Assembly: GCA_964429215.1 (NCBI GenBank)
Contig: CAYSAY010000001.1
Location: forward strand, 27,931 to 91,930
Reading direction: 5' to 3'
DNA length: 64,000 nt
Source: an uncultured Gammaproteobacteria bacterium
GTDB lineage: Bacteria; Patescibacteriota; Microgenomatia; UBA8517
In this document: one piece after another, positions 4,747-41,359 of the stretch
Layout: every line of letters starts with the position of its first letter
Position numbering within the stretch: the stretch's first letter is position 1
Made by a program: the position numbers and the translations under genes
The notes under the pieces: model-generated
What the model was told of the DNA's origin: nothing
Database searches by the model: none
Seen by the model: only the letters and a program-made list of their open reading frames with translations

Positions 4747-6049
4747 ATATACTGGATAACAATATCCCTATACCCATTATGAATAAGCCAAGTGTTGGTG
4801 TCAAGCTACCAGTTTCTGGTGTTGGCATCAGTGTACTAACTGCAGTTGCAGTGGCCTTTTGAGTCGCAGATACAGTTGCTGTTGCAGTAGATGTTGCAGA
4901 TGCTTGAGTTGTTGCAGTTGAAGTAGCTTTTTGAGTTGGTGTTGCTGATGGAGTAGACTCAAATGCTGGTCCTTCCGCAGCAGAAACGACAAATGATTTT
5001 GTAACTGTTCTTAAAATACCAGTTGCGTCTCTCCATTTTAAAGTTACTTTGTGTTCACCTGGTTCAAGGTTATTTGGTGGACTCCATTTCCACGCACCTT
5101 TAGAATCTGCTGTAATAACTGCGGATTGTAATTCTGATTCAACCTGAATTTCTATTTGTGCTTTTGTTGGTGCTTTACCAAAAAATTCTGGATCAGTTGT
5201 ATTTATTATTTCTCCTTCATCTATAGATTCAATAGATAAAGTACTTACTGTATTTGGTACTTCTGATTTAGTAATTTCAAATCTTGAAGAAGCTTCTATC
5301 GCTTGTGGTACAGACAATGAACTTTCAGGAAGTGTTGTATCGTTGTTTTGAGTTAAAGTTCTAAAGTCATATGTTTTACCTAAGACTATTACTGGAATTG
5401 ACTTAATGTTTTTAGAATAAATTACAGCTGATGAGTTTCCATTTGATCCTCCATTTACTGTTATTTCAATAGCTGCTGATTCTGAGACGTTGTCAACATA
5501 ATTTGATATTGGAATAATATAACTACCTTCTGGTGAAGTAATATTTGTTAACAGAGTTCCGTTTATATTGATTGTAACGATTGCTTGTGCCGGTGTTGCT
5601 CCGTCTGCAAGGTAGACTATACCTGATGCAATTAAATTTTCAGTTCTTGCAACTTTATTGTTATTTGTGGTTAATTGCCATGCAATTCCATCGTTATCAT
5701 AATCTTTTCCTTCTGAATTTACTTTGAAGAATATATTTGAACCGGCATCTATCCCAGATATTGTAGCTGAATGTACAAAGCTTTTTTCAGAGTTTGTCTC
5801 AAGTGCAACTTTACTTAAACTATTTTGAGATTTACCCCATTTGACAAATCCTTTGGTCTCAATGTCTGTGTTCCAGGTTACTGTTGCTTCTGTGTTTGTT
5901 ACATTGCTAAATCTAACATTCTTAGGTGTAGTGGCAACACTAGCGCCGATTTTAAAAACTGATTTTGAATTAATTAAAAAGACTCCTGCTACAACACCAA
6001 TTACTAATATAATTACTCCAAGTATTGTAGGAAGTTTAGCTCTATTCAT
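4721..6049 (-). CDS. FN3-domain surface protein with a C-terminal cell-wall sorting-like signal
   Basis: N-terminal TM/signal anchor. PKNVRFSNVTNTEATVTWNTD...FFKVNS is an FN3-like domain. The C-terminus has a Thr/Ala/Ser linker, then PTPETG, a hydrophobic stretch and KKSYA. Confidence 0.5.
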   Translation of the reverse strand: MNRAKLPTILGVIILVIGVVAGVFLINSKSVFKIGASVATTPKNVRFSNVTNTEATVTWNTDIETKGFVKWGKSQNSLSKVALETNSEKSFVHSATISGIDAGSNIFFKVNSEGKDYDNDGIAWQLTTNNNKVARTENLIASGIVYLADGATPAQAIVTININGTLLTNITSPEGSYIIPISNYVDNVSESAAIEITVNGGSNGNSSAVIYSKNIKSIPVIVLGKTYDFRTLTQNNDTTLPESSLSVPQAIEASSRFEITKSEVPNTVSTLSIESIDEGEIINTTDPEFFGKAPTKAQIEIQVESELQSAVITADSKGAWKWSPPNNLEPGEHKVTLKWRDATGILRTVTKSFVVSAAEGPAFESTPSATPTQKATSTATTQASATSTATATVSATQKATATAVSTLMPTPETGSLTPTLGLFIMGIGILLSSIFVYKKSYA

Positions 6050-6245
6050 CGTGAGTTCTAAGTTTTATCTCATCTAATGTTTTTATGTCAAGGTTTGGAT
6101 CAAGCTTTAAAATTAATTCTTGTGGAATATCAGTTTTTGATTCTTTAGTAAAAACACTATATATAGAAAAACTGATCCAAAATAGTGTAGTAATTAAAGT
6201 AAGAATAATTAATATTATTAAACTTGGTAATTTATTTTTTTTCAT
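6042..6245 (-). CDS. Small membrane protein (hypothetical)
   Basis: 67 aa. MKKNKLPSLIILIILTLITTLFWISF is a TM helix. It overlaps both flanking operon genes. Confidence 0.3.
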   Translation of the reverse strand: MKKNKLPSLIILIILTLITTLFWISFSIYSVFTKESKTDIPQELILKLDPNLDIKTLDEIKLRTHDE

Positions 6246-6906
6246 TTTGTTTAGTATCTATTGTATAAGGAACTCTTCCTGAGATTAATAAGCTTATTAT
6301 CTTACCGTTTTCAGTAGTATTTGCATTAACTATTATTGAATCAATTTTTATTGGTCGTCTTAAATATTCAATACTTTTTAAGTATGATGATAAATTTTGA
6401 TATTCACCAGATACTGTAATTGAAAAAGGTAATTCACTAATGTCACCAAATACATTAGATACGTCAGCTGATTTTTGTTTTGCAGGTGGCACACCTTTCA
6501 TGACGATGTCAGATGATGACATACCAACAATTTGGACATTTGAAGATAATGCAATTTTTTCAAATTGTTTTATAAGCGTTTCTGGTGATGATGAGTTTGG
6601 AATAGCTTGATCAAGATATTGTAATTTTTCTGAATTTGTTTGAAGCAAGTTGCTTGCTTTTTGTAAATTACTAATTTTTTGATTTAATTCTGCAATTGTT
6701 GCTGTCTTTGATTCAATTTCTTTACTTAATTCTACAATTGTAAGTACTGTTGGTTTGATCGCAAAAATTGAAAATATAATTATCGTTACAATGGATAATA
6801 TTAGTTCAAGATATATTTTTAAGTTTGGTTTGCTATTATAGACACTAAGAATATTTAAAAAAAATTCTTTATATCTATAATAGTCATGTTTCCATCCAAT
6901 TGCCAT
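6232..6906 (-). CDS. pilO: Type IV pilus assembly protein PilO
   Basis: N-terminal TM, then a coiled coil, then a C-terminal DISELPFSITVSGEYQNLSSYLKSIEYLRRPIKIDSI segment typical of PilO. Confidence 0.6.
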   Translation of the reverse strand: MAIGWKHDYYRYKEFFLNILSVYNSKPNLKIYLELILSIVTIIIFSIFAIKPTVLTIVELSKEIESKTATIAELNQKISNLQKASNLLQTNSEKLQYLDQAIPNSSSPETLIKQFEKIALSSNVQIVGMSSSDIVMKGVPPAKQKSADVSNVFGDISELPFSITVSGEYQNLSSYLKSIEYLRRPIKIDSIIVNANTTENGKIISLLISGRVPYTIDTKQNEKK

Positions 6907-6907
6907 A

Positions 6908-7474
6908 TTATTTATTAGTCGTTAGTTGATTACTAGACACTTCAGCAGTAATAGTAAAATTTGTAATTGCGGAATTTTCAGTGTTTGATGAAACTTGAGT
7001 TAAATTAACATTTGTTAAAAACTTAGAATTTTCAAGGTTTATTAAAAATTGAGCAATTGATTGTTCAGAGAAAGAAATTGCTTTAATAGTTAAGTCTTTG
7101 TTTGTAATTGAAATTGAACTTAGAATGGTGTCACTTGGTATGTATTTTGAGACAGCTTCAATGGTGTTATTCACACTTGGTTCAGAATAGAGGACATTTA
7201 GAATTTTTAGTTTGTTTTGGTTAAGTCGGAACTGGTCTTCCGTACTAGCATATGCTAAAACTTGTGATTTTTTAACATTAAGTTCATCGTTAAGATCTGA
7301 ATTTCTTGAGTCAAACCAAAATCTTGAAAGAAATGCACTCATAACAATAAGTTCAGTAATAATAACTGTGACACGAAATGTAGAAAGAGCCCATTTTAAT
7401 ATTCGACCAACAGTGGAACCTTCGAATTCTTCTTGAGGTATTAGATTAATTTGTTTTGTTTTTCTAATGGGCAT
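6908..7474 (-). CDS. pilN: Type IV pilus assembly protein PilN
   Basis: N-terminal INLIP motif (INLLP in PilN), then a basic stretch and a TM helix. It lies immediately upstream of pilO. Confidence 0.55.
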   Translation of the reverse strand: MPIRKTKQINLIPQEEFEGSTVGRILKWALSTFRVTVIITELIVMSAFLSRFWFDSRNSDLNDELNVKKSQVLAYASTEDQFRLNQNKLKILNVLYSEPSVNNTIEAVSKYIPSDTILSSISITNKDLTIKAISFSEQSIAQFLINLENSKFLTNVNLTQVSSNTENSAITNFTITAEVSSNQLTTNK

Positions 7475-7517
7475 GTACTCAATATATCACATAGAAAGTC
7501 GCGTTAGAAGAGAAAAT

Positions 7518-7751
7518 TTATTTTGAAAGTTTTGATAGCTGAGATTTAATTCTTGCAGCTTTGTTTGCATGAATTGATCTGCTTTTTGAAGCTTTGTCGG
7601 CAAAAGATGATGCTGATTCTATATCTTTTTTAGATTTTGTTTTTTTAGCTTTTTTAATTGCTACTTCGAGCTTGGTTAAAACTACTTTATTTATAGCTTC
7701 TTTTCTTTGAGAACCTCTTAATGCTCTTTTGGCTGTTTTTGTTACTGGCAT
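7518..7751 (-). CDS. rpsT: 30S ribosomal protein S20
   Basis: 77 aa, basic. The MPVTKTAKRALRGSQRK...AINKVVLTKLE pattern matches S20. Confidence 0.8.
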   Translation of the reverse strand: MPVTKTAKRALRGSQRKEAINKVVLTKLEVAIKKAKKTKSKKDIESASSFADKASKSRSIHANKAARIKSQLSKLSK

Positions 7752-7787
7752 ATGGGTAGTATAATCTGGAAAAGCTAATTTGACAAT

Positions 7788-9482
7788 ATGAACATGAAAA
7801 TATTAACAAATAAAATAAAATCACTTTTTCAAGATCAGCAGCACTCAGTACTTTCTGCAGCTACTTTAATTATGGTGATGATTGTCATATCAAGGCTGTT
7901 GGGTTTGGTTAGACAAAGAGTACTTGCTCATTTTTTTGAATCTAGTGACTTAAGTTTGTTTTTTGCTGCATTTAGATTACCTGATACTATTTTTGAAGTT
8001 TTGGTTTTTGGAACTTTTGCATCCGCGTTTATTCCTATATTTACCACAACACTTAAAAAATCAAAAGAAAATGCTTGGAAAGTTGCTGGAATTATTGCAA
8101 ATTGGGGTGGAGTAATTTTTATAGTTTTGGCTACTATTGTGGTTATATTTGCGCATCCTTTGTATAGAATAATAACTCCTGGGTTTAATTATTCTGATCA
8201 GGCAAAAATTGCCGATCTTGCAAGAATTCTTTTTGTGGCACAAGGGTTTTTTGTAATCTCGTATGTATTGACTGCAGTCCTTGAGTCATCCAAACGATTT
8301 TTTGTACCTGCTTTAGCACCACTTTTTTATAACCTTGGAATGATACTTTCTACGATACTATTTGCAGATAAGTTGGGACTTTATGCCCCTGTAATTGGTG
8401 TAGTAGTGGGATCGGCAATGCATTTTTTTATCCAATTGCCACTTGCCATTAAACTTGGGTTTAGATTTAGTAAGGCGTTTACTCTTACGCCTGAAGTAAA
8501 AAAAATAGCCAAATTATCACTTCCTCGCATTGCAGAGGTTTCTTTCTTGCAAGTTGCTAAATTTGTTGAGCTCACGTTAGCGAGCCTAATTTCTGTCCCT
8601 GCGTACACTTATTTTACCTTTGGAAACACAATTCAACTATTGCCGGTTGGGCTTTTTGGTACTTCAATTGCAAAAGCTGCTCTTCCTACACTTGCAAGAC
8701 AAGCTGACGACCTTCCTGCATTTAAGAAGACTTTGTTTGAAACGCTAAATCAAGTTATATTTTTAATGGCACCCATTGTTGCATTTTTGATGGTCGCAAG
8801 GGTTCCAGTTGTAAGACTTATTTTTGGAACTGATATCTTTACTTGGAATGCTACAGTTGAAACATCCCTTGTTGTGTCTGCCTTTGCTTTTGGAATATTT
8901 TCTCAATCAATTAATTCAATCCTAGCAAGGTCTTTTTACGCATTATCAGACACAAAAACTCCTGTAATTGTTTCGGTTTCTACATTAATTTTAAATATTG
9001 TTATGGACTATATATTAGTAATTGTATACAAGCTTCCAGTTTGGAGTTTGGCAGCTGCGTTTTCTGTTTCATGCATTATTCAATCCGTAATACTTTTTGT
9101 ACTAATAACAAATAGAATTCATGATGGTGCAAAGAAAAGTTTATACATCCCAGTTTTGAAAATGTTTTTTTCAGGTTTAGTTTCAGGGAGCACTATGTTT
9201 TTCATATTAAAGTTTTTTGATAAATCTGTTTGGCTTAAGAAAATATCCTTTATCTCAAACCTTGATTTGCCGTTTGAGAAGTTTGTATTAGACACTAGGT
9301 ATGCTGGAAATTTATTGATGTTGACTGCGATCGTAGGTTTAATAGGTGTTGTTGTTTATATAATAGTTTTAAAATTATTAAAATCAACAGAGCTTGATAC
9401 ATTCATAAATTTATTTAAAAGAATGCTTCGTGGTCAAAAGTTTTCTACCGTATCAAATACTGAACAAACATTGGAGAGTTAA
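7788..9482 (+). CDS. murJ: Lipid II flippase MurJ (MviN)
   Basis: 564 aa polytopic membrane protein. N-terminal SAATLIMVMIVISRLLGLVRQRVLAHFFESSD is the MurJ signature. Confidence 0.8.
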   Translation: MNMKILTNKIKSLFQDQQHSVLSAATLIMVMIVISRLLGLVRQRVLAHFFESSDLSLFFAAFRLPDTIFEVLVFGTFASAFIPIFTTTLKKSKENAWKVAGIIANWGGVIFIVLATIVVIFAHPLYRIITPGFNYSDQAKIADLARILFVAQGFFVISYVLTAVLESSKRFFVPALAPLFYNLGMILSTILFADKLGLYAPVIGVVVGSAMHFFIQLPLAIKLGFRFSKAFTLTPEVKKIAKLSLPRIAEVSFLQVAKFVELTLASLISVPAYTYFTFGNTIQLLPVGLFGTSIAKAALPTLARQADDLPAFKKTLFETLNQVIFLMAPIVAFLMVARVPVVRLIFGTDIFTWNATVETSLVVSAFAFGIFSQSINSILARSFYALSDTKTPVIVSVSTLILNIVMDYILVIVYKLPVWSLAAAFSVSCIIQSVILFVLITNRIHDGAKKSLYIPVLKMFFSGLVSGSTMFFILKFFDKSVWLKKISFISNLDLPFEKFVLDTRYAGNLLMLTAIVGLIGVVVYIIVLKLLKSTELDTFINLFKRMLRGQKFSTVSNTEQTLES

Positions 9483-9586
9483 CTCTAAGATTACAAATAA
9501 TGATTGGTTAGGAGGGATGGGGGTTGTAATTATATTTTTAGTTATTAAGAAAAGAAGAGTTTGAAGTATTAGTGTAAAATGAAAGT

Positions 9587-10417
9587 ATGGAAGTGAGTAA
9601 GATCGCAATCTTCAAAGGCAAAAAGGTAAGAAAAGTTATTTTTCAAAATGAGTGGTGGTTTTCTGTTGTTGATGTTGTTGAAGCTTTGACAGATAGCGTA
9701 GATCCGCGTGATTACTGGTTTAGAATGAAAGTCAGAGTTAAAAGTGATGATGGAATTGAGTTGTCGACAATTTGTCGACAACTGAAATTAGAATCGTCTG
9801 ATGGTAAAAAATATAATACGGACTGTGCAAATACTGAAAGTATTTTTAGGATTATCCAATCGATTCCTTCTCCAAAAGCAGAGCCTTTTAAGCGCTGGCT
9901 GGCTAAAGTTGGATATGAAAGGGTACAGGAGATTGAAGATCCTGAACTTGCCACAAAAAGAACAAGAGCTATTTATAAAGCAAAAGGTTATCCCGATTCT
10001 TGGATTGAAAAAAGAATGCGTGGTATTGAAATCCGAGAAACATTAACAGATGAATGGAAAAAGAGGCGGGTTGGAGGGGATTTAGAATACGCAATTCTAA
10101 CTGCTGAAATTTCAAAGGCTACTTTTGGAATGATCCCAAGTGAATATAAAAAGTTCAAAGGTTTAAAAAGAGAAAATCTTCGTGATCATATGAATGACCT
10201 AGAATTAATTTTTTCAATGCTTGGTGAGGCATCAACGACTGAAATTGCTAAAAATCAGAATTCTCAAGGATTTATAGAAAATAAAATCTCTGCACAAAAA
10301 GGTGGAACAGTCGCAGGTAATGCAAGAAAAGAACTCGAAAAAGAAAGTGGGGTAAAAGTTTCAACCAAAAAGAATTTTAAGTTATTGAAAAATAAAAATC
10401 TTCAAATTGATAGTTGA
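9587..10417 (+). CDS. BRO-N domain protein, DinD-like (DNA-damage-inducible protein D family)
   Basis: FQNEWWFSVVDVVEALT is a Bro-N motif. The C-terminal half resembles E. coli DinD (KGLKRENLRDHMNDLELIFSMLGE...). Confidence 0.55.
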   Translation: MEVSKIAIFKGKKVRKVIFQNEWWFSVVDVVEALTDSVDPRDYWFRMKVRVKSDDGIELSTICRQLKLESSDGKKYNTDCANTESIFRIIQSIPSPKAEPFKRWLAKVGYERVQEIEDPELATKRTRAIYKAKGYPDSWIEKRMRGIEIRETLTDEWKKRRVGGDLEYAILTAEISKATFGMIPSEYKKFKGLKRENLRDHMNDLELIFSMLGEASTTEIAKNQNSQGFIENKISAQKGGTVAGNARKELEKESGVKVSTKKNFKLLKNKNLQIDS

Positions 10418-10442
10418 CAACTGTTGGCACTCAATGTATATT
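10414..10442 (+). promoter_or_regulatory. Sigma70-like promoter (TTGACA-17-TATATT) for hrcA-grpE
   Basis: TTGACA at 10414-10419. Then a 17-nt spacer. Then TATATT at 10437-10442. Confidence 0.6.
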
Positions 10443-10450
10443 AGTGCTAA
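10424..10450 (+). promoter_or_regulatory. CIRCE operator (HrcA binding site)
   Basis: TTGGCACTC-N9-TAGTGCTAA has one mismatch to the consensus TTAGCACTC-N9-GAGTGCTAA. It overlaps the promoter. Confidence 0.8.
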
Positions 10451-10483
10451 CCTCGATTAAATCGGGGTAAATATCAATTTATT

Positions 10484-11206
10484 ATGAATGCATTAACATC
10501 GAGACAGACACAAATTTTAAAGGCACTTATCGATGAATATATTGAAACAGCCGAGCCTGTTGGTTCTGGTCCTCTTGAGAAGAAATATAATTTAGGAGTT
10601 TCCCCTGCAACTATTCGAAATGAAATGGCTAACTTAACTTTATTAGGATTTTTAAAACAGCCTCATACATCAGCTGGAAGAATTCCAACATCTGGTGCTA
10701 TGAAATTCTACGTTGATCAACTTATGGAAGAAAAACAGATGAGTTTAGCTGAGGAAGTTAAGGCTAAAGAAGAGGTTTGGGATGATAGAGGTAATTTTGA
10801 TAAATTTATAAATGAAATGACTCATTCGTTAGCAGACAGAACTGGCGGAATGGCAGTTACCGCAACTCAAGACGGTTCAGTCTGGCAAGCAGGACATGGA
10901 AATTTATTTAGTTACCCAGAATTTGCAAATATAGGAATTTGCTCTTCTTTATTTGGATTCATGGATGAGGATGAACAACTAATGGATTTATTTTTTAATA
11001 GGTTTCCAATAGAGACTGCATTTGATGTACTATTTACTGAAGATTTAGGATTTAGGAATATGCCTGTGGGAATAGTTGCAGCTCATTTTAATGTGAAGGG
11101 TAGAAATGGTGCACTTGGGGTGATTGGTCCTGTTAGACAGTCTTATGCAAGCTTGGTTCCAGTGATCAGATACTATAGAGGAATGCTTGAAGATGTAATG
11201 CAATAA
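10484..11206 (+). CDS. hrcA: Heat-inducible transcription repressor HrcA
   Basis: The N-terminus RQTQILKALIDEYIETAEPVGSGPL is the HrcA winged HTH. A CIRCE element lies upstream. Confidence 0.85.
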   Translation: MNALTSRQTQILKALIDEYIETAEPVGSGPLEKKYNLGVSPATIRNEMANLTLLGFLKQPHTSAGRIPTSGAMKFYVDQLMEEKQMSLAEEVKAKEEVWDDRGNFDKFINEMTHSLADRTGGMAVTATQDGSVWQAGHGNLFSYPEFANIGICSSLFGFMDEDEQLMDLFFNRFPIETAFDVLFTEDLGFRNMPVGIVAAHFNVKGRNGALGVIGPVRQSYASLVPVIRYYRGMLEDVMQ

Positions 11207-11223
11207 TTTTAAAATAAATTAAT

Positions 11224-11721
11224 ATGAAAAAAATAATAAATAATAAAAAACAGGATATAGAAAAAAATAGTGAAGAGCTTGATGCAATGAAAAATCAGCT
11301 TGCAAGAGCCATGGCAGATTATGCCAATTTGCAAAAAAGAACAGATGAAGAAAGAGGAACAATGTATAAACTTGCTAGTATTTCTTTTATGACGAAAATT
11401 CTCCCAATAATTGATAACTTGAAACAGGCTCAGAACCATGTTAATGATTCTGGAATAGCAATAATTATTGGACAACTTGAAACTTTAGCAAAAGAAGAAG
11501 GCTTTGAAGAAATTAAGATTCAGGTTGGTGAAAAATTTAATGAACTAATAATGGAAGTTACAGAAGTTGTTGAAACTGATAACGAAAAAGACGATAATAA
11601 TGTGTCAGAAGTAGTATTATCTGGTTGGAAGTATAATGACCCGCCTAGACTCGGCGAGGCTGGTGGTACAGTTGTTAGACATTCAAGAGTAAAGGTGTGC
11701 AAACTTAAAAAAGCCTCTTGA
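11224..11721 (+). CDS. grpE: Nucleotide exchange factor GrpE
   Basis: 165 aa. It has a coiled-coil N-terminus and a GrpE-like C-terminus, and sits between hrcA and dnaK. Confidence 0.75.
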   Translation: MKKIINNKKQDIEKNSEELDAMKNQLARAMADYANLQKRTDEERGTMYKLASISFMTKILPIIDNLKQAQNHVNDSGIAIIIGQLETLAKEEGFEEIKIQVGEKFNELIMEVTEVVETDNEKDDNNVSEVVLSGWKYNDPPRLGEAGGTVVRHSRVKVCKLKKAS

Positions 11722-17931: not shown

Positions 17932-19311
17932 ATGAAAGTAAAAAGACAACCAATTGTAGTAGTTTTAGGCCACGTTGATCACGGTAAGACCTCACTTCTT
18001 GATGCTTTAAGAAACACAAACATAACTGGCGGCGAAGCTGGTGGTATTACACAATCAATTGGAGCTTCAGTTGTAACAACGAAAGAGGGAAGTAAAATAA
18101 CATTTATAGACACTCCAGGTCACGCAATCTTTTCAGGGATGAGATCAAGAGGTGCTAATATTGCCGACATTGCCCTATTAATTGTTGATGGTTCTGGTGG
18201 AGTTAAACCGCAAACAAAAGAAGCAATTGGCTTAATTCAAGAATCAAAGATACCTTTTATTGTTGTTGTGACAAAAATTGATTTGCCTGCAGCTTCTGTC
18301 GATGTGGTATTGGCTGAACTTGAAAAGGAAGGAATTTTGTTTGAAGGTCGAGGTGGACAAACCCCTTATATTGGAGTTTCAGCTAAAAAGAAAGAAAAGT
18401 TAGAAGACTTGATTGATTTAATTAGCTTGCTTGCTGAAGTAAATAATATAGAAGGAGACGCAGAAATTCCACTTGAAAGTTATGTAATTGAAACAAACAA
18501 AGAAAGAGGCGGAAACATGGTTTCTGTTGTTGTTAAAAATGGAGTTTTAAAAGTTGGACAGGAGATATTTAGTGATTCAGCGCAAGGTAAAGTAAAAGGG
18601 CTCTATGACTTTGCCAATAAACAGGTAAAAGAAATAGGACTTGGTGAACCAGCAAAAATATTAGGCTTTGATAACTTGCCAGAAGTAGGAGCGTTAATAT
18701 CCGATCAAAAAATAGATATGAAATTAACTGTTAAAGATAACAAATCAAGAATTGAGAAAGGTAAAATAGCAATTTATTTAAAGGCTGAAAGTGCAGGATC
18801 TCTTGAAGCGCTTGTAGCCTCAATTCCTCAAGAGTTTTCAATTATTGAATCAACTGTTGGAGATGTTACAGAATCAGATGTATTAAATGCAAAGGCTAAT
18901 AATGCAGTTATCTTTGTGTTTGAAAGTAAAATTCCAGGAAGTGTTAAAAAACTTGCAGAAATGGATAAAGTAAAAATATTTAAATACGATATTATTTATG
19001 AACTTTTACAGAAACTTGATGAAATTGTAAAAAGCGGTTTAATTGAAATATTAGGCAAAGCTGAAATTTTAGCAAGTTTCCCATTTGATAATAAAAAAAT
19101 TGCTGGTTCTAAAGTCTTGCATGGAAGAATTGAAAAAACTGGGGATATAAGGCTAATGAGAGGGGAAAAAGAACTTGGAAAAGTAAAGATTTTATCTATT
19201 AAGAAACAAAAACAAGAAGTTCCTGGAGTATCTCAAGGAGAAGAATGTGGAATACTTTTTGTTCCACAGCTTGATTTTATTACAGGAGATGTTATAGTTT
19301 CGGTTAAATAA
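17932..19311 (+). CDS. infB: Translation initiation factor IF-2 (compact form, no N-terminal domains)
   Basis: [24 protein letters not shown] and a TKIDL-containing G domain, then domain II, C1 and C2. Only 459 aa. Confidence 0.85.
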   Translation: MKVKRQPIVVVLGHVDHGKTSLLDALRNTNITGGEAGGITQSIGASVVTTKEGSKITFIDTPGHAIFSGMRSRGANIADIALLIVDGSGGVKPQTKEAIGLIQESKIPFIVVVTKIDLPAASVDVVLAELEKEGILFEGRGGQTPYIGVSAKKKEKLEDLIDLISLLAEVNNIEGDAEIPLESYVIETNKERGGNMVSVVVKNGVLKVGQEIFSDSAQGKVKGLYDFANKQVKEIGLGEPAKILGFDNLPEVGALISDQKIDMKLTVKDNKSRIEKGKIAIYLKAESAGSLEALVASIPQEFSIIESTVGDVTESDVLNAKANNAVIFVFESKIPGSVKKLAEMDKVKIFKYDIIYELLQKLDEIVKSGLIEILGKAEILASFPFDNKKIAGSKVLHGRIEKTGDIRLMRGEKELGKVKILSIKKQKQEVPGVSQGEECGILFVPQLDFITGDVIVSVK

Positions 19312-20433: not shown

Positions 20434-21684
20434 ATGAGTCATAAAATAATTACTCTAATTTTAACTAGTTTTTGTTATCTGTTTTTATTAGTAAATAATA
20501 TCAGTGCACAAACATGCAATTTTCCCATCGGTGATAGTAATCTAAGAGATTACGGAACGGTAAAATCTCTAGAGATTGGTGGTCCTATACTTGGAAAAAT
20601 GACTGGTTTAGTAAATGATTCTGTCGAGGAGACAAAACTATTGAAAGAATTCTCATTTGCGGTTTCACCAGTTTTCATGGCCAGAATCCAACCAACAAGA
20701 AACACATTCAACTATTTATCAATGAATAAGGATATTGAAGTTGCGAAGCAATACAATTTAAAGCTAAAGGGTGACAGTTTGATTTTTGGAACTACTTCAA
20801 TAAGTCCCGGATGGCTAGGATTTACTGACACTAGTTGTGGTTCGTGGACTAATGTCGAACTAGATTCAATAATGAAAGACCATATTCAGAAAATAGTTAC
20901 ACATGGTGGGTCAAATTATTCAATATGGGAGGTGGTTAATGAGCCGTTTGACGGCAACGGCAATCTTTATAGATGTTGGTACAAAATACTTGGTAGGGAG
21001 TATATAGCCAATGCTTTTCGATATGCTGACCAAGCAAGACCTAATAAAGATATCAAATTAATGTTGAATGAACATTTTGGGTGGACTGCTTCACTTACTG
21101 AAGACAAACCGAAAATAGACGCCTTTATTAATTTAGTTAAAGAGCTGAAAAATGCAAATATTCCCCTAGATATTTTAGGAATCCAATTACATTTAAGGTT
21201 AGATGGGTTGTCCCAAACATATATAGATGAAATAAATTATTTTTTGACAGCAGCTCAGTCATTGCAGTTACCTGTACATATCACTGAAATGGATGTTTAT
21301 CAGGGAGTGTCACCTATGGCTGATTGGGAACAACTTCAAAAAAATGTATATAAAAACATCGTAGCTACATGTCTAAAATACTCAAACTGTAAATCATTTT
21401 CAACATGGGGAATATCTGACAAGTCAACATGGTTGAACAGTATAAATAATTTTCCAAACCCTAAACCACTTCTTTTTGATACAAATTATCTAAAAAAGCC
21501 TGCATATTTTGGTGTCGTAGAGGCAATATCTGAAGATACATTTCGTACATGTACTTCAAAACCAGGAGATTTAAATAATGATGGTTCTGTAAATATTTTC
21601 GATTACAATATTTTAATTTCGAAATTTGGAAACCCTTATACTTATGCAGATTTTGATTTGGTTGTTATAAATTATGGTAAATAA
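20434..21684 (+). CDS. Secreted glycoside hydrolase family 10 (endo-1,4-beta-xylanase-like) with a C-terminal dockerin-like module
   Basis: Signal peptide. WEVVNEP (acid/base), LGIQLH, HITEMDV (nucleophile) and STWGISDKSTWL are GH10 motifs. The C-terminal DLNNDGSVNIFDYNILISKFG is a dockerin Ca-binding repeat. Confidence 0.7.
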   Translation: MSHKIITLILTSFCYLFLLVNNISAQTCNFPIGDSNLRDYGTVKSLEIGGPILGKMTGLVNDSVEETKLLKEFSFAVSPVFMARIQPTRNTFNYLSMNKDIEVAKQYNLKLKGDSLIFGTTSISPGWLGFTDTSCGSWTNVELDSIMKDHIQKIVTHGGSNYSIWEVVNEPFDGNGNLYRCWYKILGREYIANAFRYADQARPNKDIKLMLNEHFGWTASLTEDKPKIDAFINLVKELKNANIPLDILGIQLHLRLDGLSQTYIDEINYFLTAAQSLQLPVHITEMDVYQGVSPMADWEQLQKNVYKNIVATCLKYSNCKSFSTWGISDKSTWLNSINNFPNPKPLLFDTNYLKKPAYFGVVEAISEDTFRTCTSKPGDLNNDGSVNIFDYNILISKFGNPYTYADFDLVVINYGK

Positions 21685-22783
21685 CAGACTTAAAACATTA
21701 AAGATTGTAGCAGAAATAGTTGTGGCAATCATTTTGTTAGTCTCTTTGGTACTTGGAGTAAATCTTGTTCTGAAAGGGAGAAATAATCTTGGTTCTATCG
21801 CTGGTGTTGTTGGGCCAAAGATAGCATTTTCAACGACGACCAGTACAATGAAATTGGGAGAATCAAAATCTTTTGACATTTTGCTGTCGACAGATACTAA
21901 TTTTATTACCGCCGTTCAAGTCGATTTGTCTTACGACCCTACAGTTTTGGATCAGGTAACATTTTCAAATGGCACAATTACCCCAGTCGTTTTAAAACCG
22001 CTCTCTACCAACAATGGAATTGCGTCTATAACACTTGGAGTGATGCCAACAAAAGCTTTCCATGGAAATGGTATTGTTGGTAAACTAAATGTCCATGCTA
22101 AAACTATAAAGAAAACTTCAATTACTTTTACTCAGAATTCTATTGTAACTTCGATGAATATTAACTCAAACACCCTAACTACCAGTGATTCAATTTTGAT
22201 TGATATTGTACCAAACACAATATTAGATTTTTCTGATGTTCCCACTTCACACTGGGCCTACAGTAATATAAGAATTTTACAGATACTAGGTATAGTACAA
22301 GGGTGTTCTCAAAATCCTTTAAAATATTGTCCAGAAGACCCAACTACTCGTTCTACAGCTAGTATCTTTTTACTTAAAGGAAAGTATGGTCAGAACTATT
22401 CGCCTCCGTTAGCCACTAAAACAAGTTTTTCTGATGTTCCCACTTCACACTGGGCATACAAATGGATTGAGCAATTAGCCAAAGAAGGGATAACTTCTGG
22501 TTGTGGATCTGGTAAATATTGTCCAGAAAGTCCTGTCACAAGAGCTCAGATGGCAGTATTATTGTTAAAAACAAAACATGGAATTAGTTATGTCCCATCC
22601 GTTTTTCCGACATCATTATTTTCTGATGTTCCCACTTCACACTGGGCATACAAATGGATTGAGCAATTAGCCAAAGAAGGGATAACTTCTGGTTGTGGAT
22701 CTGGTAAATATTGTCCAGAAAGTCCTGTCACAAGAGCTCAGATGGCAGTATATATAGTCAAGACTTTTAATTTGAAAATATAG
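21674..22783 (+). CDS. Cell-surface anchoring protein: N-terminal TM, a cohesin-like domain and three SLH domains
   Basis: AVQVDLSYDPTVLDQVTFSNGTI and NGIVGKLNVHAKTIKKTSITF resemble cohesin strands. There are three FSDVPTSHWAY...VTRAQMAV repeats (SLH). Confidence 0.6.
   Translation: MVNNRLKTLKIVAEIVVAIILLVSLVLGVNLVLKGRNNLGSIAGVVGPKIAFSTTTSTMKLGESKSFDILLSTDTNFITAVQVDLSYDPTVLDQVTFSNGTITPVVLKPLSTNNGIASITLGVMPTKAFHGNGIVGKLNVHAKTIKKTSITFTQNSIVTSMNINSNTLTTSDSILIDIVPNTILDFSDVPTSHWAYSNIRILQILGIVQGCSQNPLKYCPEDPTTRSTASIFLLKGKYGQNYSPPLATKTSFSDVPTSHWAYKWIEQLAKEGITSGCGSGKYCPESPVTRAQMAVLLLKTKHGISYVPSVFPTSLFSDVPTSHWAYKWIEQLAKEGITSGCGSGKYCPESPVTRAQMAVYIVKTFNLKI
22428..22760 (+). repeat. Tandem direct repeat: two identical ~131-bp copies (22428-22558 and 22630-22760) with a 202-bp period, encoding SLH domains 2 and 3
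   Basis: Verbatim identical DNA, ttttctgatgttcccacttcacactgggcatacaaatggattgagcaattagcc...cagatggcagta. Confidence 0.9.
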
Positions 22784-22796
22784 TAAAATATTTCTT

Positions 22797-23408
22797 ATGC
22801 AAGGAAACAATTCAATTTCAACACCAGTAGTTACTCCACCTCTTGTGATTGAGTATCCAAAATCAAACAATTATTTAGTTATGTTGTTATCTATCTTGCT
22901 AATTATCTCTGTAGCTATTTCAGGTTTTTTTGCTTTCCAAACACAGAAATTAGTTAAAGAATTAACTTTACTAAGAAGTGAAGCTACACCAGTTGCAACA
23001 GTAGAACCACTTACAACAAATAGTGCAATTGCAACTGCCGATCCAACAGCAAATTGGAAAACATATACAAATCCTAATTTTAGCTTTAAATATCCAGACA
23101 GCCTAAAAGTTGGAGAGATTGTCCCTGAATATATAGTCAAATTTGTGGACTCAAAACTAGTTGAAAAAATCATTATGTACCAAGGACAGTTTGCAGATGG
23201 AACTGACAATCCAAATTCAAAGTTTGAATATTCAGCAGGAAAAATACAAAACCAAGAATCTAAAATACAAAAAAATTATTCATATAATAAATTAGTTCAA
23301 ATATCCTATGAATTCAAGGTCAATGACGAGGACACAATAATGTCATTTGTTGGAATTGACCAAGAAGTTATTGATCAAATTCTTTCCACTTTTAAATTCA
23401 CAAATTAA
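22797..23408 (+). CDS. Membrane-anchored hypothetical protein (paralog of 40748-41359)
   Basis: TM LLSILLIISVAISGFFAFQTQKLVKELTLLR is shared with the paralog at about 80% nt identity. Confidence 0.45.
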   Translation: MQGNNSISTPVVTPPLVIEYPKSNNYLVMLLSILLIISVAISGFFAFQTQKLVKELTLLRSEATPVATVEPLTTNSAIATADPTANWKTYTNPNFSFKYPDSLKVGEIVPEYIVKFVDSKLVEKIIMYQGQFADGTDNPNSKFEYSAGKIQNQESKIQKNYSYNKLVQISYEFKVNDEDTIMSFVGIDQEVIDQILSTFKFTN

Positions 23409-33894: not shown

Positions 33895-35631
33895 ATGATC
33901 ACAAGTAATGAAGTAAGGGAAAAATATTTAAAATTTTTTGAGAAACGGGGACATGCAATAATTCCTCCAGCCCCACTTGTATTAGAAAATGATCCAACTA
34001 CTTTATTTACATCATCTGGAATGCAGCCATTGGTCCCTTATTTAATGGGCAAAAAACATGAATTAGGAACAAGGCTTGTTGATTCGCAGCCTTCAATTAG
34101 GCTTCAAGATATAGAGGAGGTTGGAGATAACAGACATACTACTTACTTTGAAATGTTGGGTAATTGGAGTCTTGGCGATTATTTTAAAGAAGAACAACTT
34201 CCTTGGATCTGGGAGTTTTTAACTAAAGAATTAAAATTATCACCTACGAAGTTGTATGTCTCAATTTTTGAAGGTACATCAGATGTTCCTGAAGATATTG
34301 AAAGCTTTAATATCTGGAGAAAGTTAGGAGTTCCTGAAGACCATATTTTTGAATATGGTGTTAAAAAAAATTGGTGGAGTAGAAGTGGTACACCTGACCA
34401 GATGCCTGAAGGAGAAATTGGGGGACCAGATTCTGAGATATTTTTTGATTTTGGCGAATCTTTAAAATTACATGAAGCATCTGAGTTTAAAAATGATAAA
34501 TGTAATCCAAATTGTGATTGCGGAAGGTTTTTAGAAATCGGAAACTCTGTTTTTATTCAGTACAGTAAAAATAAGGATGGTTCTTTGTCAGAACTACCTC
34601 AAAAAAATGTCGATTTTGGAGGCGGTTTAGAAAGAATTACGGCAGCACTTAATAATGATCCAGATGTATTTAAAACTGATATCTTTTGGCCAACGATTGA
34701 AAAACTTGAAGAAATAACTGGTAAAAAATATGATGATGAAAAAAAGAATTTTAGGATTATTTCAGATCATTTAAGAGCTTCAAAAGCTCTAATTGATAGT
34801 GGGGTTGTTCCATCGAATAAGATGCATGGATATATTCTCAGACGATTGGTAAGAAGAGTTGTAACTAAACTTGATAAATTTGAAATGCTGGTTACAGAAC
34901 CGCTTATTTTAGAAGAATACAGAAAGTTTAAAGTTAGTCTTGAGAATGGTTTAAAGGAGATTAAAAAAATTGAAAAAATTACAGGTAAAATAGCTTTTGA
35001 TTTATATCAATCCTATGGGTTTCCGCTTGAATTGACTGTAGAACTTTTTGCAGATAAAGGACAAAAAGTGGATTTGGAAGAATTTAAAAAGGAGTTTGAG
35101 AAACATAAAGATGCATCCCGATCTACTTCTAAAGGAATGTTTAGAGGCGGTCTTGAAGATCACTCAGAAGAAACGACCAAGTTACATACAGCAACACACA
35201 TGTTGCATGCATCACTACGAAAAGTTTTAGGCGACACTGTAAGCCAGAAAGGAAGTCATATTACGGCTGAAAGGCTAAGATTTGATTTTTCATATACAAA
35301 CAAATTAACAGATGATCAAGTTAAAGATGTGTTTGATTTGATTAACGAGAAAATTGATCAGGATTTAACGGTAAGTTTTGTTGAAACTACACCTGCTGAA
35401 GCCATCAAAAAAGGAGCATTACATTTCTTTGCAGAAAAATATGGTGAGAAGGTTAAAATGTATACAATAGGTTCAGAAAATGATTATTTTTCGCGCGAAA
35501 TATGTGGAGGACCGCACGTCACTAGCACAAGCCTTTTAGGTCATGCTAGAATGATTAAGCAGGAGAAAATTGGGAGTGGAATAATACGAATATATGTTGG
35601 ACTTTCTGACAAAATCAAAAGAGAAAAATGA
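33895..35631 (+). CDS. alaS: Alanine--tRNA ligase, compact form without the C-Ala domain
   Basis: N-terminus VREKYLKFFEKRGHAIIPPAPLVLENDPTTLFTSSGMQ. The editing domain has HTATHMLH and CGGPHV. 578 aa. Confidence 0.85.
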   Translation: MITSNEVREKYLKFFEKRGHAIIPPAPLVLENDPTTLFTSSGMQPLVPYLMGKKHELGTRLVDSQPSIRLQDIEEVGDNRHTTYFEMLGNWSLGDYFKEEQLPWIWEFLTKELKLSPTKLYVSIFEGTSDVPEDIESFNIWRKLGVPEDHIFEYGVKKNWWSRSGTPDQMPEGEIGGPDSEIFFDFGESLKLHEASEFKNDKCNPNCDCGRFLEIGNSVFIQYSKNKDGSLSELPQKNVDFGGGLERITAALNNDPDVFKTDIFWPTIEKLEEITGKKYDDEKKNFRIISDHLRASKALIDSGVVPSNKMHGYILRRLVRRVVTKLDKFEMLVTEPLILEEYRKFKVSLENGLKEIKKIEKITGKIAFDLYQSYGFPLELTVELFADKGQKVDLEEFKKEFEKHKDASRSTSKGMFRGGLEDHSEETTKLHTATHMLHASLRKVLGDTVSQKGSHITAERLRFDFSYTNKLTDDQVKDVFDLINEKIDQDLTVSFVETTPAEAIKKGALHFFAEKYGEKVKMYTIGSENDYFSREICGGPHVTSTSLLGHARMIKQEKIGSGIIRIYVGLSDKIKREK

Positions 35632-37720
35632 AAGTTTTTGGGCTTTACTCATCGAACCTGAGTGGATTACTTCAGCAATTTGGCAAATTGTAGATAAGAA
35701 AGTTGAAATAGTTAGTACTTCACCTTCTACCAGATATGATAACCAAAGTAATGTGGAAGGGTTGGGTTTAATTGAAGCAGTTGATGCTTCTTTATCATCA
35801 TGCACACAGAATTTACCAGAGGATTTTATTGATCCAACAAAAACTGTTTTTGGAGTACCTAATTCTTGGATTGAAGATGGAAATATAAAAGAAGAATATT
35901 TAGGTAAACTTAAAAAATTATGTGATGATTTATCCTTAGTACCGTCTGGATTTGTAGTATTATCTGAAGCTATTTCTCATTTTATAAAGCAAGATGAAGA
36001 ATCTCCTCTATCCGGTATTGTTGCTGGAATAAGCAATGATGTTGTTGATTTATCAATATTTAGTTTGGGTAAATTAATAGGTACTACAAGTGTTCTAAGA
36101 AGTGTGTCAATTGAAGAAGATATGGTGGAAGGATTAAGTAGACTTGGTGGAACACTTGAAAATTTTCCCTCCAGAATTATCTTAATTAATCAAAAAGAAC
36201 AAGAATTGGAAGAGATAAAAACAACCTTGGGAAGTGCAGATTGGGAAAAGATTGGTAATAGTAAGTTTATTCATACTCCAAGAATTGAGGTTTTAGAACC
36301 AAGTAAGAAAATTATGGCTGTGGCTCTTGCTGGAGGATCTGAAATGGGTGAAGTAATTGGAGTGCATGAAGTTGGTGCTAACGAACAAGTTGATACTGAT
36401 ATTGATACTGAAACTGATACTTTACCTATTGAAGAACTTGATAATGTTCATGAGCCTGAAAATGTTACTGCAGAAGATTTAGGTTTTGTCGTAAATAATG
36501 AACCACAAAAGGCATCTTTTGTGGCACCTGTGGTTAATGATAAATTTATTGAACCTGTAAAGTCTATACAATTGCCAAAACTACCAAAATTTAACTTTAA
36601 AAAACCTAATTTTAACTTTAAAGTAGGTAATCGACCGTTGATAATGGGAGGTAGTTTATTAATTACCCTACTTGTTGTTGGATTTATACTTTGGTGGTTT
36701 GCACCAAAAGCAACAATTACAATTTATGTTTCACCAAAGAAAATTGAAGAAAGTACATCTGTAAATATAGCGTCTGATTTAACTAGTTCAGAAATTGAGG
36801 TTGCTGTATCTGGAGAAAAGACAAAATCAACAACTGGTACAAAATTAGTTGGAGATAGAGCGAAGGGTTCTGTGAAGATTCAAAACGGTACGGCTTTTCC
36901 AGTGAATGTTCCTGCAGGAACTATACTTTTATCAGCCGGGGATTTGAAGTTTCAAACTACAAAGTCTGCATCAATTTCAGGTGCATTATCTCCTAGTACA
37001 CCAGGAACGGCAACTATTGATGTTGAGGCTGGAAATATTGGAAATGAATATAATTTAGCAAAGAATGAAGTGTTTAAAGTATCTAATTTTCCAAAGGCAG
37101 AAGTAGATGCAACTGCTGTTGATAATTTTACTGGTGGTTCAAGCCGTCAAATTTCATCAGTTAGCGATGATGATAGAAAGTCGCTAATTAAAAGCTTGAC
37201 TGAAGAGTTAACTAACGATGCAAAATTAAAATTAAATGAAAAAGTTGGTTCGGATGAGATGTTGGTTGAGTCATCAATAATTACTGAAAGTGATGAAGAA
37301 GATTTTAGCAATAAAGTTAATGATGAAGCTTCGAACTTGAAACTTAATTTAGGATTAATTGTAAAGGCAAAGGTTGTCTCTAAAACTGGATTATCAGCTG
37401 TTTCAAAGAAAAATTTAGAGAGCAAAGTGCCAGAGGGTTTTGTGTTAAAAGATGATCAGATAACATATGATTTTTCAGAGACAGACGAAGATGACGTTTT
37501 TGAACTGCGAATTTCTGCTAATTTATTACCAAATATTAATCCTGATGATATTGCAAAAAAAGTCTCAGGTAAAATTTCTAGTATTGCTGAAGATTATTTA
37601 AATAGTGTTCCTGGTTTTATAAGGGCAGAAATAAGAGTTACTCCTTTATTTCCAGGTAAACTTGGAACATTGCCTCATGTTTCAGATAGAATATATATAA
37701 CAATTTCGGCTGATAAATAA
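35594..37720 (+). CDS. Large single-pass membrane protein (hypothetical). The N-terminal cytoplasmic region weakly resembles the actin-like PilM/FtsA fold.
   Basis: TM LIMGGSLLITLLVVGFILWWFAP at mid-protein. The N-terminal LLIEPEWITSAIWQIVDKKVEIVSTS and VAGISNDVVDLSIF look like phosphate-1 and phosphate-2 motifs. Overlaps the alaS 3' end by 38 nt. Confidence 0.3.
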   Translation: MLDFLTKSKEKNESFWALLIEPEWITSAIWQIVDKKVEIVSTSPSTRYDNQSNVEGLGLIEAVDASLSSCTQNLPEDFIDPTKTVFGVPNSWIEDGNIKEEYLGKLKKLCDDLSLVPSGFVVLSEAISHFIKQDEESPLSGIVAGISNDVVDLSIFSLGKLIGTTSVLRSVSIEEDMVEGLSRLGGTLENFPSRIILINQKEQELEEIKTTLGSADWEKIGNSKFIHTPRIEVLEPSKKIMAVALAGGSEMGEVIGVHEVGANEQVDTDIDTETDTLPIEELDNVHEPENVTAEDLGFVVNNEPQKASFVAPVVNDKFIEPVKSIQLPKLPKFNFKKPNFNFKVGNRPLIMGGSLLITLLVVGFILWWFAPKATITIYVSPKKIEESTSVNIASDLTSSEIEVAVSGEKTKSTTGTKLVGDRAKGSVKIQNGTAFPVNVPAGTILLSAGDLKFQTTKSASISGALSPSTPGTATIDVEAGNIGNEYNLAKNEVFKVSNFPKAEVDATAVDNFTGGSSRQISSVSDDDRKSLIKSLTEELTNDAKLKLNEKVGSDEMLVESSIITESDEEDFSNKVNDEASNLKLNLGLIVKAKVVSKTGLSAVSKKNLESKVPEGFVLKDDQITYDFSETDEDDVFELRISANLLPNINPDDIAKKVSGKISSIAEDYLNSVPGFIRAEIRVTPLFPGKLGTLPHVSDRIYITISADK

Positions 37721-37734
37721 GTAAATCAAAAGTA

Positions 37735-38394
37735 ATGAATCGTCGTAAAGTAGTCAAACTTGCTAGTCTAATTTCAGGTCTTTCGGGACTTACAATTCTT
37801 GTATCTTCAGTATGGCCAATAGTAGAATATCAGTTAACTGAGGCCAGATCTTATACAACATTATTATCACCATTAGTAATAACAAAAGAAGATCAGGTAC
37901 AAAAAACAGGTGATTTAACAAAAGCTTCTAATTGGTTTCCAGATGCTCCTAAAAATGATCAGTTCGAGAAGTCAAAAGTTGATTTCTATACAATTTCGAT
38001 ACCAAAATTAAAAATTGATAATGCAATTGTTTCAATAGGTGGGGAAGATTTGTCAAAAAATCTTGTTCAGTATCCTGGAACTGCATTACCTGGAAAAAAT
38101 GGAAATGCAGTAGTTTTTGGCCATTCAGTTTTACCAATTTTTTATAACCCAAAAAATTATATGGCAATATTCTCTACTCTTCCAACACTTAAAACAGGTG
38201 ACGACATACTAGTTAATTATGACGGAGTTGCCTTTAAATTTTTAGTGGAGGAAATGTTTGAGATTTATCCTTCAGACATTCAAATATTAGAGCAAAATCC
38301 ATCAGATTCGTTTTTGACGTTAGTCACTTGTACTCCACCAGGGGACCCTAGAAATCCTAAGAGATTGATAGTAAGGGCCAGAGTTACTTCTTGA
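37735..38394 (+). CDS. Sortase (transpeptidase)
   Basis: N-terminal membrane anchor, VVFGHSV (His), LTLVTCTP (TLXTC Cys), RLIVRARV (Arg). Confidence 0.8.
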   Translation: MNRRKVVKLASLISGLSGLTILVSSVWPIVEYQLTEARSYTTLLSPLVITKEDQVQKTGDLTKASNWFPDAPKNDQFEKSKVDFYTISIPKLKIDNAIVSIGGEDLSKNLVQYPGTALPGKNGNAVVFGHSVLPIFYNPKNYMAIFSTLPTLKTGDDILVNYDGVAFKFLVEEMFEIYPSDIQILEQNPSDSFLTLVTCTPPGDPRNPKRLIVRARVTS

Positions 38395-40747: not shown

Positions 40748-41359
40748 ATGCAAGAAAATCAAACACAATTACCAGTAAATCAATCAATCAGTGAGACAGT
40801 GATTCAGACAGAACAGTTGCCAAAGAAAAGTAATTTTCTAGTTATCTTGTTATCTAGTTTACTAATTATCTCGCTTGCAATCGCAGGTTTTTTTGCCTTC
40901 CAAACACAAAAACTTGTTAAAGAGTTAACTTTATTACGAATTGAACCAACACCTGTTGTTACTGCAGAACCAACAATTGAGCCAGTTGCAACTAATAGTG
41001 CAACTCCTGATTTAATAGCAACTCCAAAATCGATCGTAAACTTATTTGATGCGATTAATAAAAACTTTAATTTGAGTCTAGTACAAATTGCAGAAAATCA
41101 ATTTTATTCGCCTACTGGAATGATTTCTAAAAAATCGTGGAAAATAGATCTTGTAAATTCAAATCTTGGGAAATCATTTACAACATATATAGCAACCCAA
41201 TTGAGTCCAAACTTTTCTGAATCTGCTGGAGGTGGTGGTGGGGGTGTAGATGCATATGAAAACAGTTTAATTAAATGTTTCCACGTGTATGGTTTTAAAA
41301 GCGGTGATCCAACAAATTGGAAAGATCCTTTTAATTATTTATCCTGTGCTGAAAAATAG
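40748..41359 (+). CDS. Membrane-anchored hypothetical protein (paralog of 22797-23408)
   Basis: Shares the TM and LVKELTLLR segment with the paralog. Confidence 0.45.
   Translation: MQENQTQLPVNQSISETVIQTEQLPKKSNFLVILLSSLLIISLAIAGFFAFQTQKLVKELTLLRIEPTPVVTAEPTIEPVATNSATPDLIATPKSIVNLFDAINKNFNLSLVQIAENQFYSPTGMISKKSWKIDLVNSNLGKSFTTYIATQLSPNFSESAGGGGGGVDAYENSLIKCFHVYGFKSGDPTNWKDPFNYLSCAEK

Follow-up and report, generated by a model that had tools for sequence, protein, structure and literature searches.

A probable minimal cellulosome-style enzyme-display gene pair in a Woesebacteria-like bacterium of the Candidate Phyla Radiation

We analysed a stretch of 64,000 nucleotides from contig CAYSAY010000001.1 (GenBank assembly GCA_964429215.1, positions 27,931 to 91,930; hereafter the window), focusing on two overlapping genes of its forward strand, open reading frame (ORF) A at 20434..21684 and ORF B at 21674..22783. 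ORF A encodes a secreted glycoside hydrolase of family 10 (GH10) that ends in a short dockerin-like tail, and ORF B encodes a cohesin domain followed by three S-layer homology (SLH) domains. On balance we think that the two genes probably form a real but minimal cellulosome-style module for enzyme display on the surface of a Woesebacteria-like cell. In the mechanism that we propose, the Sec pathway would export ORF A, a putative endo-xylanase with an intact active site, and ORF B would be fixed at the envelope by its N-terminal membrane helix and by the binding of its three SLH domains to wall polymer, leaving one cohesin domain exposed. The tail of ORF A would then bind this cohesin in a calcium-dependent manner. 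The xylanase would thus be kept on the cell and xylo-oligosaccharides freed beside the cell's own transporters, and the 11-nt overlap of the genes would couple translation of anchor and enzyme, matching their amounts.

That ORF A (416 aa) is a GH10 enzyme had been proposed in a first-pass annotation of this DNA, and the assignment is well founded. The protein matches Glyco_hydro_10 (PF00331) over residues 83-364 with an E-value of 2.1e-58 and 198.4 bits (cutoff 22.1). In PDB it matches 136 GH10 sequences, the best of which, XynZ of C. thermocellum (1xyz, E 8e-44), aligns end to end with the catalytic domain (residues 31-365, 20524..21528), a (beta/alpha)8 domain. Both catalytic glutamate motifs of the family (N-E-P and T-E-x-D) are intact: the acid/base E170 lies in WEVVNEP (20926-20946), aligned with WDVANEC of 1xyz, and the nucleophile E285 in HITEMDV (21277-21297), aligned with FTEIDI. 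Inspection of the translation further predicts a Sec signal peptide, MSHKIITLILTSFCYLFLLVNNISA (20434..20508), with a basic n-region, a hydrophobic core, small residues at -3 and -1 and cleavage after ISA. A protein 100% identical to ORF A (P0121) is present in public assemblies, and the closest relatives other than ORF A itself share 40-45% identity and carry Acidobacteria labels. Based on its family and its active site, ORF A would be an endo-xylanase acting on xylan.

ORF B (369 aa) starts with a hydrophobic helix (residues 8-33, 21695..21772, by inspection) that may be a signal-anchor or a long signal peptide, followed by the cohesin domain at residues ~45-185 (21806..22228). The Pfam Cohesin profile (PF00963, cutoff 24.1) gives 21.9 bits in the full protein and 24.8 bits for the isolated domain. 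While a word-indexed protein search with the cohesin domain as sole query returned no matches, an exhaustive search with HMMER yielded 395 representative clusters. Among relatives of the domain, 31 of 34 match Pfam Cohesin (best E 4.7e-11), and when a profile of these 34 family members was searched against PDB nearly all matches were cohesins (best E 3e-6). An AlphaFold2 model of residues 38-186 (21785-22231), built on the family alignment, is all-beta with a predicted local distance difference test score (pLDDT) of 92.2 and a predicted template modelling score (pTM) of 0.84. The top 43 Foldseek matches of this model in PDB are all cohesins, of types I, II and III, with E-values down to 2.7e-9 and TM-scores of 0.69-0.75; they include non-cellulosomal cohesins from Archaeoglobus and C. 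perfringens. The modelling thus confirms, as a predicted structure, the nine-stranded beta-sandwich (jelly-roll) fold of a cohesin, at 10-19% identity to solved cohesins and ~30-37% identity to other members of the family. The first-pass annotation had suggested a cohesin-like beta-sandwich and had named a different fold as one finding that would count against it; because model and Foldseek both give the cohesin fold, the suggestion stands.

Three SLH domains follow at 22229..22765 (22229-22381, 22427-22573 and 22619-22765), as had also been annotated, with 90.6 bits in three stretches to Pfam SLH (PF00395). The position of the conserved TRAE motif, through which SLH domains bind secondary cell-wall polymer, reads, by inspection, TRST, TRAQ and TRAQ in copies 1 to 3; TRAE/TRAQ variants are functional in SLH binding, for example in Paenibacillus alvei SpaA. 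We suggest from these matches that the domains would bind wall polymer. The second and third copies are 100% identical over 133 nt (22427-22559 versus 22619-22751), which represents either a very recent tandem duplication or a repeat that collapses in short-read assembly. Logan contigs break at the repeat, and independent short-read assemblies of the same organism hold two SLH copies, the third being collapsed (L007 and L008, with a 305-aa protein, P0001), or, in support of a third copy, its start (L001). Because the two copies are identical and the assemblies disagree, the number of three is only probable. The closest relatives of the SLH region, at 48-62% identity, are labelled Anaerolineae or Thermoanaerobaculia.

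The tail of ORF A consists of 41 residues, KPGDLNNDGSVNIFDYNILISKFG-NPYTYADFDLVVINYGK (21559..21681). Its first half (21559-21630) is a dockerin-type calcium-binding loop plus helix, and its second half (21631-21681) is a further helix that has no D-x-N-x-D-G. All of the calcium ligands, D1, N3, D5 and D12, are present in DLNNDGSVNIFD; D1 and D12 are the same in all of 23 such tails, at least 90% of which have N at position 3, while position 5 is mostly D, with some N. The second half, NPYT-IFDYNxLVxNYGK in the family, repeats the helix of the first half with the D-x-N-x-D-G loop gone, and the consensus of the whole tail is GDLNxDGxVNIFDYNxLxSKFGNPYTIFDYNxLxxNYGK. Dockerin_1 (PF00404) matches ORF A in part, residues 377-398 corresponding to profile positions 1-22 of 57, and at 17.6 bits against a cutoff of 22.9. 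A profile of the 23 tails matches solved dockerins in PDB (5nrm_B, E 4e-8; 2y3n_B; 1daq), limited to positions 4-29, which can be aligned to either repeat of a canonical dockerin. An AlphaFold2 model from an eight-sequence alignment gives a loop and two helices with a pLDDT of 73.6. The first-pass annotation had described a dockerin-type calcium-binding repeat here and had called for searches with four profiles, in which GH10 and SLH score clearly, Cohesin falls on either side of its cutoff depending on whether the full protein or the domain is used, and Dockerin_1 stays below. What survives is a calcium-binding, dockerin-derived tail; what does not is a standard dockerin, since the tail holds one repeat rather than the two ~22-residue F-hand repeats over ~60-70 aa of the two-repeat type. 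In length (41 aa), in its one loop and in its C-terminal position it agrees with a truncated dockerin, of which ~40 aa, a single calcium-binding repeat and a C-terminal location are typical. In related loci the 'IFDYN' helix also occurs in enzymes whose two-repeat dockerins are intact (L003 8922-10370, P0232 and a GH44 of L096), and for this reason the tail is best read as derived from a dockerin whose second calcium-binding loop was lost.

To place the tail in a wider context, genome collections and metagenomes were scanned with the tail alignment alone, so that loci were chosen regardless of cohesin. Sequences 50-73% identical to the last 41 residues of ORF A form the very C-terminus of unrelated secreted proteins, and a second GH10 enzyme found elsewhere (P0202) also has the tail. 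In the genome collection the tail occurs in Candidatus Microgenomates and in metagenome-assembled genomes (MAGs) of Patescibacteria, plus two Third Party Annotation (TPA) MAGs with doubtful gammaproteobacterial labels. The metagenome scan added 78 loci with 128 ORFs carrying the full single-loop tail. Since 125 of these 128 stop within 4 residues past the tail, it behaves as a portable C-terminal tag. The 24 carriers sampled (from loci L018-L095) are mostly carbohydrate-active (GH5, three times, GH16, GH39, GH43, GH141, pectate lyases, beta-helix and BNR proteins), and only one of these is detected by Dockerin_1 at E<=1e-3. A member of the cohesin family is found in 22 of the 78 loci, and this fraction is 10 of 21 among loci of at least 8 kb and 7 of 7 among those of at least 12 kb. 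With 395 cohesin clusters and 128 tail ORFs, and with the tail also present in MAGs of Microgenomates and Patescibacteria, the earlier remark that such machinery is not expected in the Candidate Phyla Radiation (CPR) does not hold. Three of the tail loci (L013, L024 and L025) originate from the H41 well of the Hainich groundwater. The two TPA MAGs (L015, CAYGFH010000002.1; L012/L014, CAYILS01) are labelled 'uncultured Gammaproteobacteria' and 'uncultured Pseudomonadales' and have arrays of tail-bearing enzymes, as do MAGs of Microgenomates/Patescibacteria; these taxonomic labels may be wrong. In L015 a cohesin-like gene is present too and a 3656-aa protein is encoded upstream of the array, and the contig (L003/L015) holds five dockerin-type enzymes in all.

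The position of the tail also invites a different interpretation, in which it is a C-terminal sorting or processing signal, or a calcium-dependent stabilising or glycan-binding element, and the cohesin-SLH protein is an unrelated surface adhesin or an S-layer-associated protein. Like a sorting tag, the tail is placed at the very end of many secreted proteins that are otherwise unrelated; it scores under the Pfam dockerin threshold, and its model is of moderate confidence and has no structural match. However, the tail lacks the hydrophobic membrane segment typical of sortase and exosortase signals, and over its first 25 residues it matches dockerin repeats, every calcium-ligand position being intact. 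On neighbouring enzymes its place is taken by intact two-repeat dockerins that share the helix motif, and tail genes cluster with cohesin genes. We therefore regard a sorting signal or stabilising element as quite improbable and continue to read the tail as a dockerin derivative.

Further support for enzyme display is provided by the cohesin family itself, whose representatives are named 'hypothetical protein' or unnamed in their sources. A typical member has an N-terminal membrane helix and one cohesin. Between the transmembrane helix and the cohesin, proteins P0239-P0386 share a conserved R-S-x-A motif with an invariant A, which may be a signal-peptidase site. About 19 of the best 150 family representatives have C-terminal two-repeat dockerins, as in adaptors, and several members bear the single-loop tail in the same protein. 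The most elaborate is P0238 (2276 aa; L096, JGI Ga0616349_0002182, 4650-11480), a scaffoldin-like protein that combines nine family cohesins with Big_7 and fn3 modules and has a two-repeat dockerin. Its neighbours are more cohesin genes and a GH44 with a two-repeat 'IFDYN' dockerin. The GC content is 0.435, and by its gene content L096 is predicted to be a full cellulosome-like locus. Scaffoldin and adaptor architectures such as P0238 and the proteins combining cohesin and tail are expected of a working cohesin-dockerin network and therefore fit the display reading. Many family members end in a hydrophobic or amphipathic stretch (for example ...FFQNIFSILSGKQ and ...LNFFRK), and P0249, P0252, P0263, P0278 and P0279 have a C-terminal membrane helix with a basic end; judged by their sequences, such ends may be alternative anchors. 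Among the best 150 representatives and 44 metagenomic cohesin ORFs, cohesin is joined to SLH only in the window protein. Taken together, it is conceivable, at somewhat less than an even chance in our judgement, that the tail is the main enzyme-display tag of a Microgenomates/Patescibacteria clade, a naturally minimised, one-calcium dockerin working with membrane-anchored cohesins in a cellulosome-like system specific to CPR, and that the lineage of the window re-anchored the system through fusion to SLH domains.

The junction between the two genes is also shared with other loci. The ATG of ORF B lies inside the last codons of ORF A, giving the 11-nt overlap at 21674-21684 (ATGGTAAATAA) that had been noted at first pass and that we confirmed. 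Here the codons for N-Y-G-K-stop, AAT TAT GGT AAA TAA, contain the start ATG GTA AAT AA of the next frame. A downstream start codon within the conserved last codons of the tail is also found at L003 7169-7179 and 8922-8932 and in metagenomic loci L020, L030, L050, L057, L060 and L068, and successive genes in arrays of tail genes overlap by ~11-24 nt. This conserved arrangement suggests translational coupling as well as growth of the arrays by duplication.

How closely the two proteins of the window belong together is a separate question. Both genes could be part of a cohesin-dockerin network without being mutual partners, the GH10 tail binding another membrane-anchored cohesin, encoded elsewhere in the genome, and ORF B receiving other dockerins, for example two-repeat ones. 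Several cohesin paralogs and both tail types do occur together in L003/L015, L013 and L016, and the cohesin of ORF B is merely ~30-37% identical to the members of its family. Of the 97 tail genes for which the downstream sequence was long enough, 15 are directly followed by a cohesin-like ORF, in many cases overlapping it slightly; the same is true of 16 of 176 other ORFs of at least 200 aa in these tail-selected loci. As this background is not much below the value for tail genes, the adjacency reflects clustering rather than specific pairing. Against separate partners stand the single tail and the single cohesin of the 64-kb window, in genes that overlap by 11 nt, and the order of tail gene followed by cohesin gene in the 15 metagenomic cases. 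We consider it unlikely that the two are not partners, and favour binding between the tail of ORF A and the cohesin of ORF B. The background frequency of adjacency is one of several observations that weigh against our interpretation. The tail is below the Pfam cutoff for dockerins, its model was uninformative in Foldseek (one calmodulin match, E 9.7), and the second helix in the window reads YADFDLVVI where the family consensus is IFDYNxLVA. Classical binding of SLH domains to the wall needs the pyruvyltransferase CsaB, which makes the pyruvylated ligand, and Pfam scans of 33 ORFs of the 64-kb window, which is part of a contig of 264,764 bp, found no csaB.

The host is, judged by its protein sequences, a Woesebacteria-like CPR bacterium. 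EF-Tu, DnaK and EF-G of the window fall into 90%-identity clusters with proteins of Candidatus Woesebacteria GW2011_*_33_* and of 'Microgenomates/Patescibacteria group' MAGs, and because of this grouping with Woesebacteria at >=90% identity the CPR-type host suggested at first pass is right. The pair lies between IF-2 with a DHH-like gene on one side and rpsO-pnp (S15/PNPase) on the other, in a window of housekeeping genes (NusA, DnaK/J, HrcA, RNase J, FtsK, AlaRS, rpoBC, EF-G/Tu and ribosomal proteins). The homolog of IF-2 (17932-19311) has 459 aa only, beginning at the G domain without the usual N-terminal region. With one tail and one cohesin in the 64-kb window, the earlier description as one enzyme and one anchor is accurate at that scale. 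Contig CAYGFH010000002.1 (L003/L015), which comes from the same sample, was considered as part of the same genome and rejected on GC content (0.447 versus 0.339) and on tetranucleotide correlation (0.65, versus 0.975 between the halves of the window).

The first-pass annotation had further proposed that the pair is newly acquired. Under this explanation it would be a polysaccharide-scavenging module obtained by recent lateral transfer and foreign to the CPR genome. The labels of the closest relatives, Acidobacteria for GH10 and Anaerolineae/Thermoanaerobaculia for SLH (48-62% identity), are in its favour, as is the combination of cohesin and SLH, found in no other family member examined. However, the composition of the locus is indistinguishable from that of the rest of the window, with the same GC content (0.336) and a tetranucleotide correlation of r 0.92, within the 0.78-0.97 spanned by 3-kb chunks. 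ORF A has at most 45% identity to any non-self protein, P0202 carries the same tail, the tail and cohesin families are typical of Microgenomates/Patescibacteria, and housekeeping genes (IF-2; S15/PNPase) flank the locus. A fresh acquisition is thus very improbable, the least credible of the explanations considered.

Immediately downstream, 13 nt 3' of ORF B, ORF C (22797..23408, forward strand) encodes a protein of 203 aa with a membrane helix and an extracytoplasmic domain and without Pfam match. It is possibly in the same operon as the pair. A paralog is located at 40748-41359, immediately upstream of rpoB. Homologs are found beside tail-bearing enzymes in four tail-gene loci (L003/L015, L006, L018 and L065), and the one in L003 matches PsbP_2 at 32.5 bits; a tie of ORF C to the display system is possible but weak. 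Scans for promoters and terminators gave 19 sites versus 16.2 expected, that is, background, and tRNA and Rfam scans of the window had no matches. Elsewhere in the window, a 708-aa ORF with a weak Baseplate_J-like match is directly followed by a sortase gene (37735-38394, PF04203, E 9e-25; the two span 35594-38394), and further envelope genes encode MurJ (7788-9482), YceG (39102-40055) and PilN/PilO (6232-7474, minus strand). Sortase, MurJ, YceG and PilN/PilO together point to a Gram-positive-type envelope with several routes of surface anchoring.

CPR bacteria are commonly pictured as metabolically minimal epibionts. A widespread compact cohesin-dockerin system for the display of carbohydrate-active enzymes would, if true, mean that many of them take a direct part in breaking down polymers and have a defined surface architecture. 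If functional, the SLH domains predict an SLH-binding wall polymer in the Woesebacteria-like lineage. In protein engineering, a natural dockerin of 41 residues with a single calcium site would, together with the small cohesin with which it works, make a useful affinity pair. Because both modules score at or below their Pfam thresholds, cellulosome censuses of metagenomes will undercount them, and domain-based surveys would miss most of the tail and cohesin system.

The closest known architectures are those of Clostridium (Acetivibrio) thermocellum, where OlpA and SdbA have one cohesin and three SLH domains and the enzymes XynZ and Xyn10B bear dockerins. As in OlpA and SdbA, the order in ORF B is secretion signal, one cohesin and a C-terminal SLH triplet, and, as in the clostridium, a GH10 enzyme carries its dockerin at the C-terminus, with XynZ as the best PDB match of the catalytic domain. 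In contrast to C. thermocellum, the tail has one calcium loop and not two, ORF B has a long N-terminal membrane helix, its cohesin has the low identity to solved cohesins given above, and the host is a CPR bacterium. Pfam scans of the window ORFs found no carbohydrate-binding module (CBM), and the window has no multi-cohesin scaffoldin; a cellulosome in the strict sense, with such a scaffoldin, several dockerin enzymes and usually a CBM, is therefore not what the window encodes.

A strong precedent for a short dockerin comes from Ruminococcus flavefaciens, whose group-2 dockerins of ~40 aa have a single calcium repeat and show high affinity for the cohesin of ScaE, a protein anchored to the cell (Duarte et al. 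2025, PMC12270676). They are few (five sequences), are similar to group-4 dockerins in the C-terminal half of the latter and carry Gly-Arg at positions 10/11 (PMC12270676). The tail described here is alike in length, in its single repeat and in having a single-cohesin surface anchor as its proposed target. It differs in that it keeps the N-terminal loop, has Ile-Phe at positions 10/11 and retains a helix-only remnant of the second repeat, and also in abundance (128 ORFs in 78 loci compared to five sequences). The anchors differ as well, ScaE being attached by sortase and ORF B, as proposed, by its SLH domains. The truncation was probably independent of that in R. flavefaciens, and common descent is unlikely.

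Within the superphylum, a preprint reports that Ca. Shapirobacterales BG1-G2 expresses cohesin and dockerin proteins, with glycoside hydrolases (Bell et al., bioRxiv 10.1101/2021.08.21.457207), and cites Geesink et al. 2020 for 'cellulosomes' in Ca. Roizmanbacterium. Since cohesin and dockerin proteins were already reported there for Microgenomates, the idea that they are unexpected in CPR was outdated. These reports resemble our pair in superphylum and in the presence of both modules alongside glycoside hydrolases in CPR; as far as their text was accessible, they are based on domain annotation and mention neither the single-loop tail nor the clustering of tail genes with membrane-anchored cohesins, nor a cohesin anchored by SLH domains. 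One cohesin and one dockerin encoded side by side are also known from ClcC-ClcD of Cellulosilyticum lentocellum, whose heterodimer is reported to boost activity on insoluble substrate (PMC13487519); there, unlike here, the host is a Firmicute and the dockerin canonical, and the abstract mentions no SLH anchor. In addition, one protein with a dockerin domain is essential to a cultured saccharibacterium (PMC10633639), and SLH proteins are known in Patescibacteria (PMC13059738). In the literature searched we found no account of the single-loop tail as an abundant standard tag in a Microgenomates/Patescibacteria clade, of its clustering with membrane-anchored cohesins, or of a cohesin+SLH fusion in this cohesin family. 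Overall, while the pairing of cohesin and dockerin is itself already known, what appears to be new is the fusion of this cohesin to SLH domains and the fact that the truncated tail seems to dominate in the clade.

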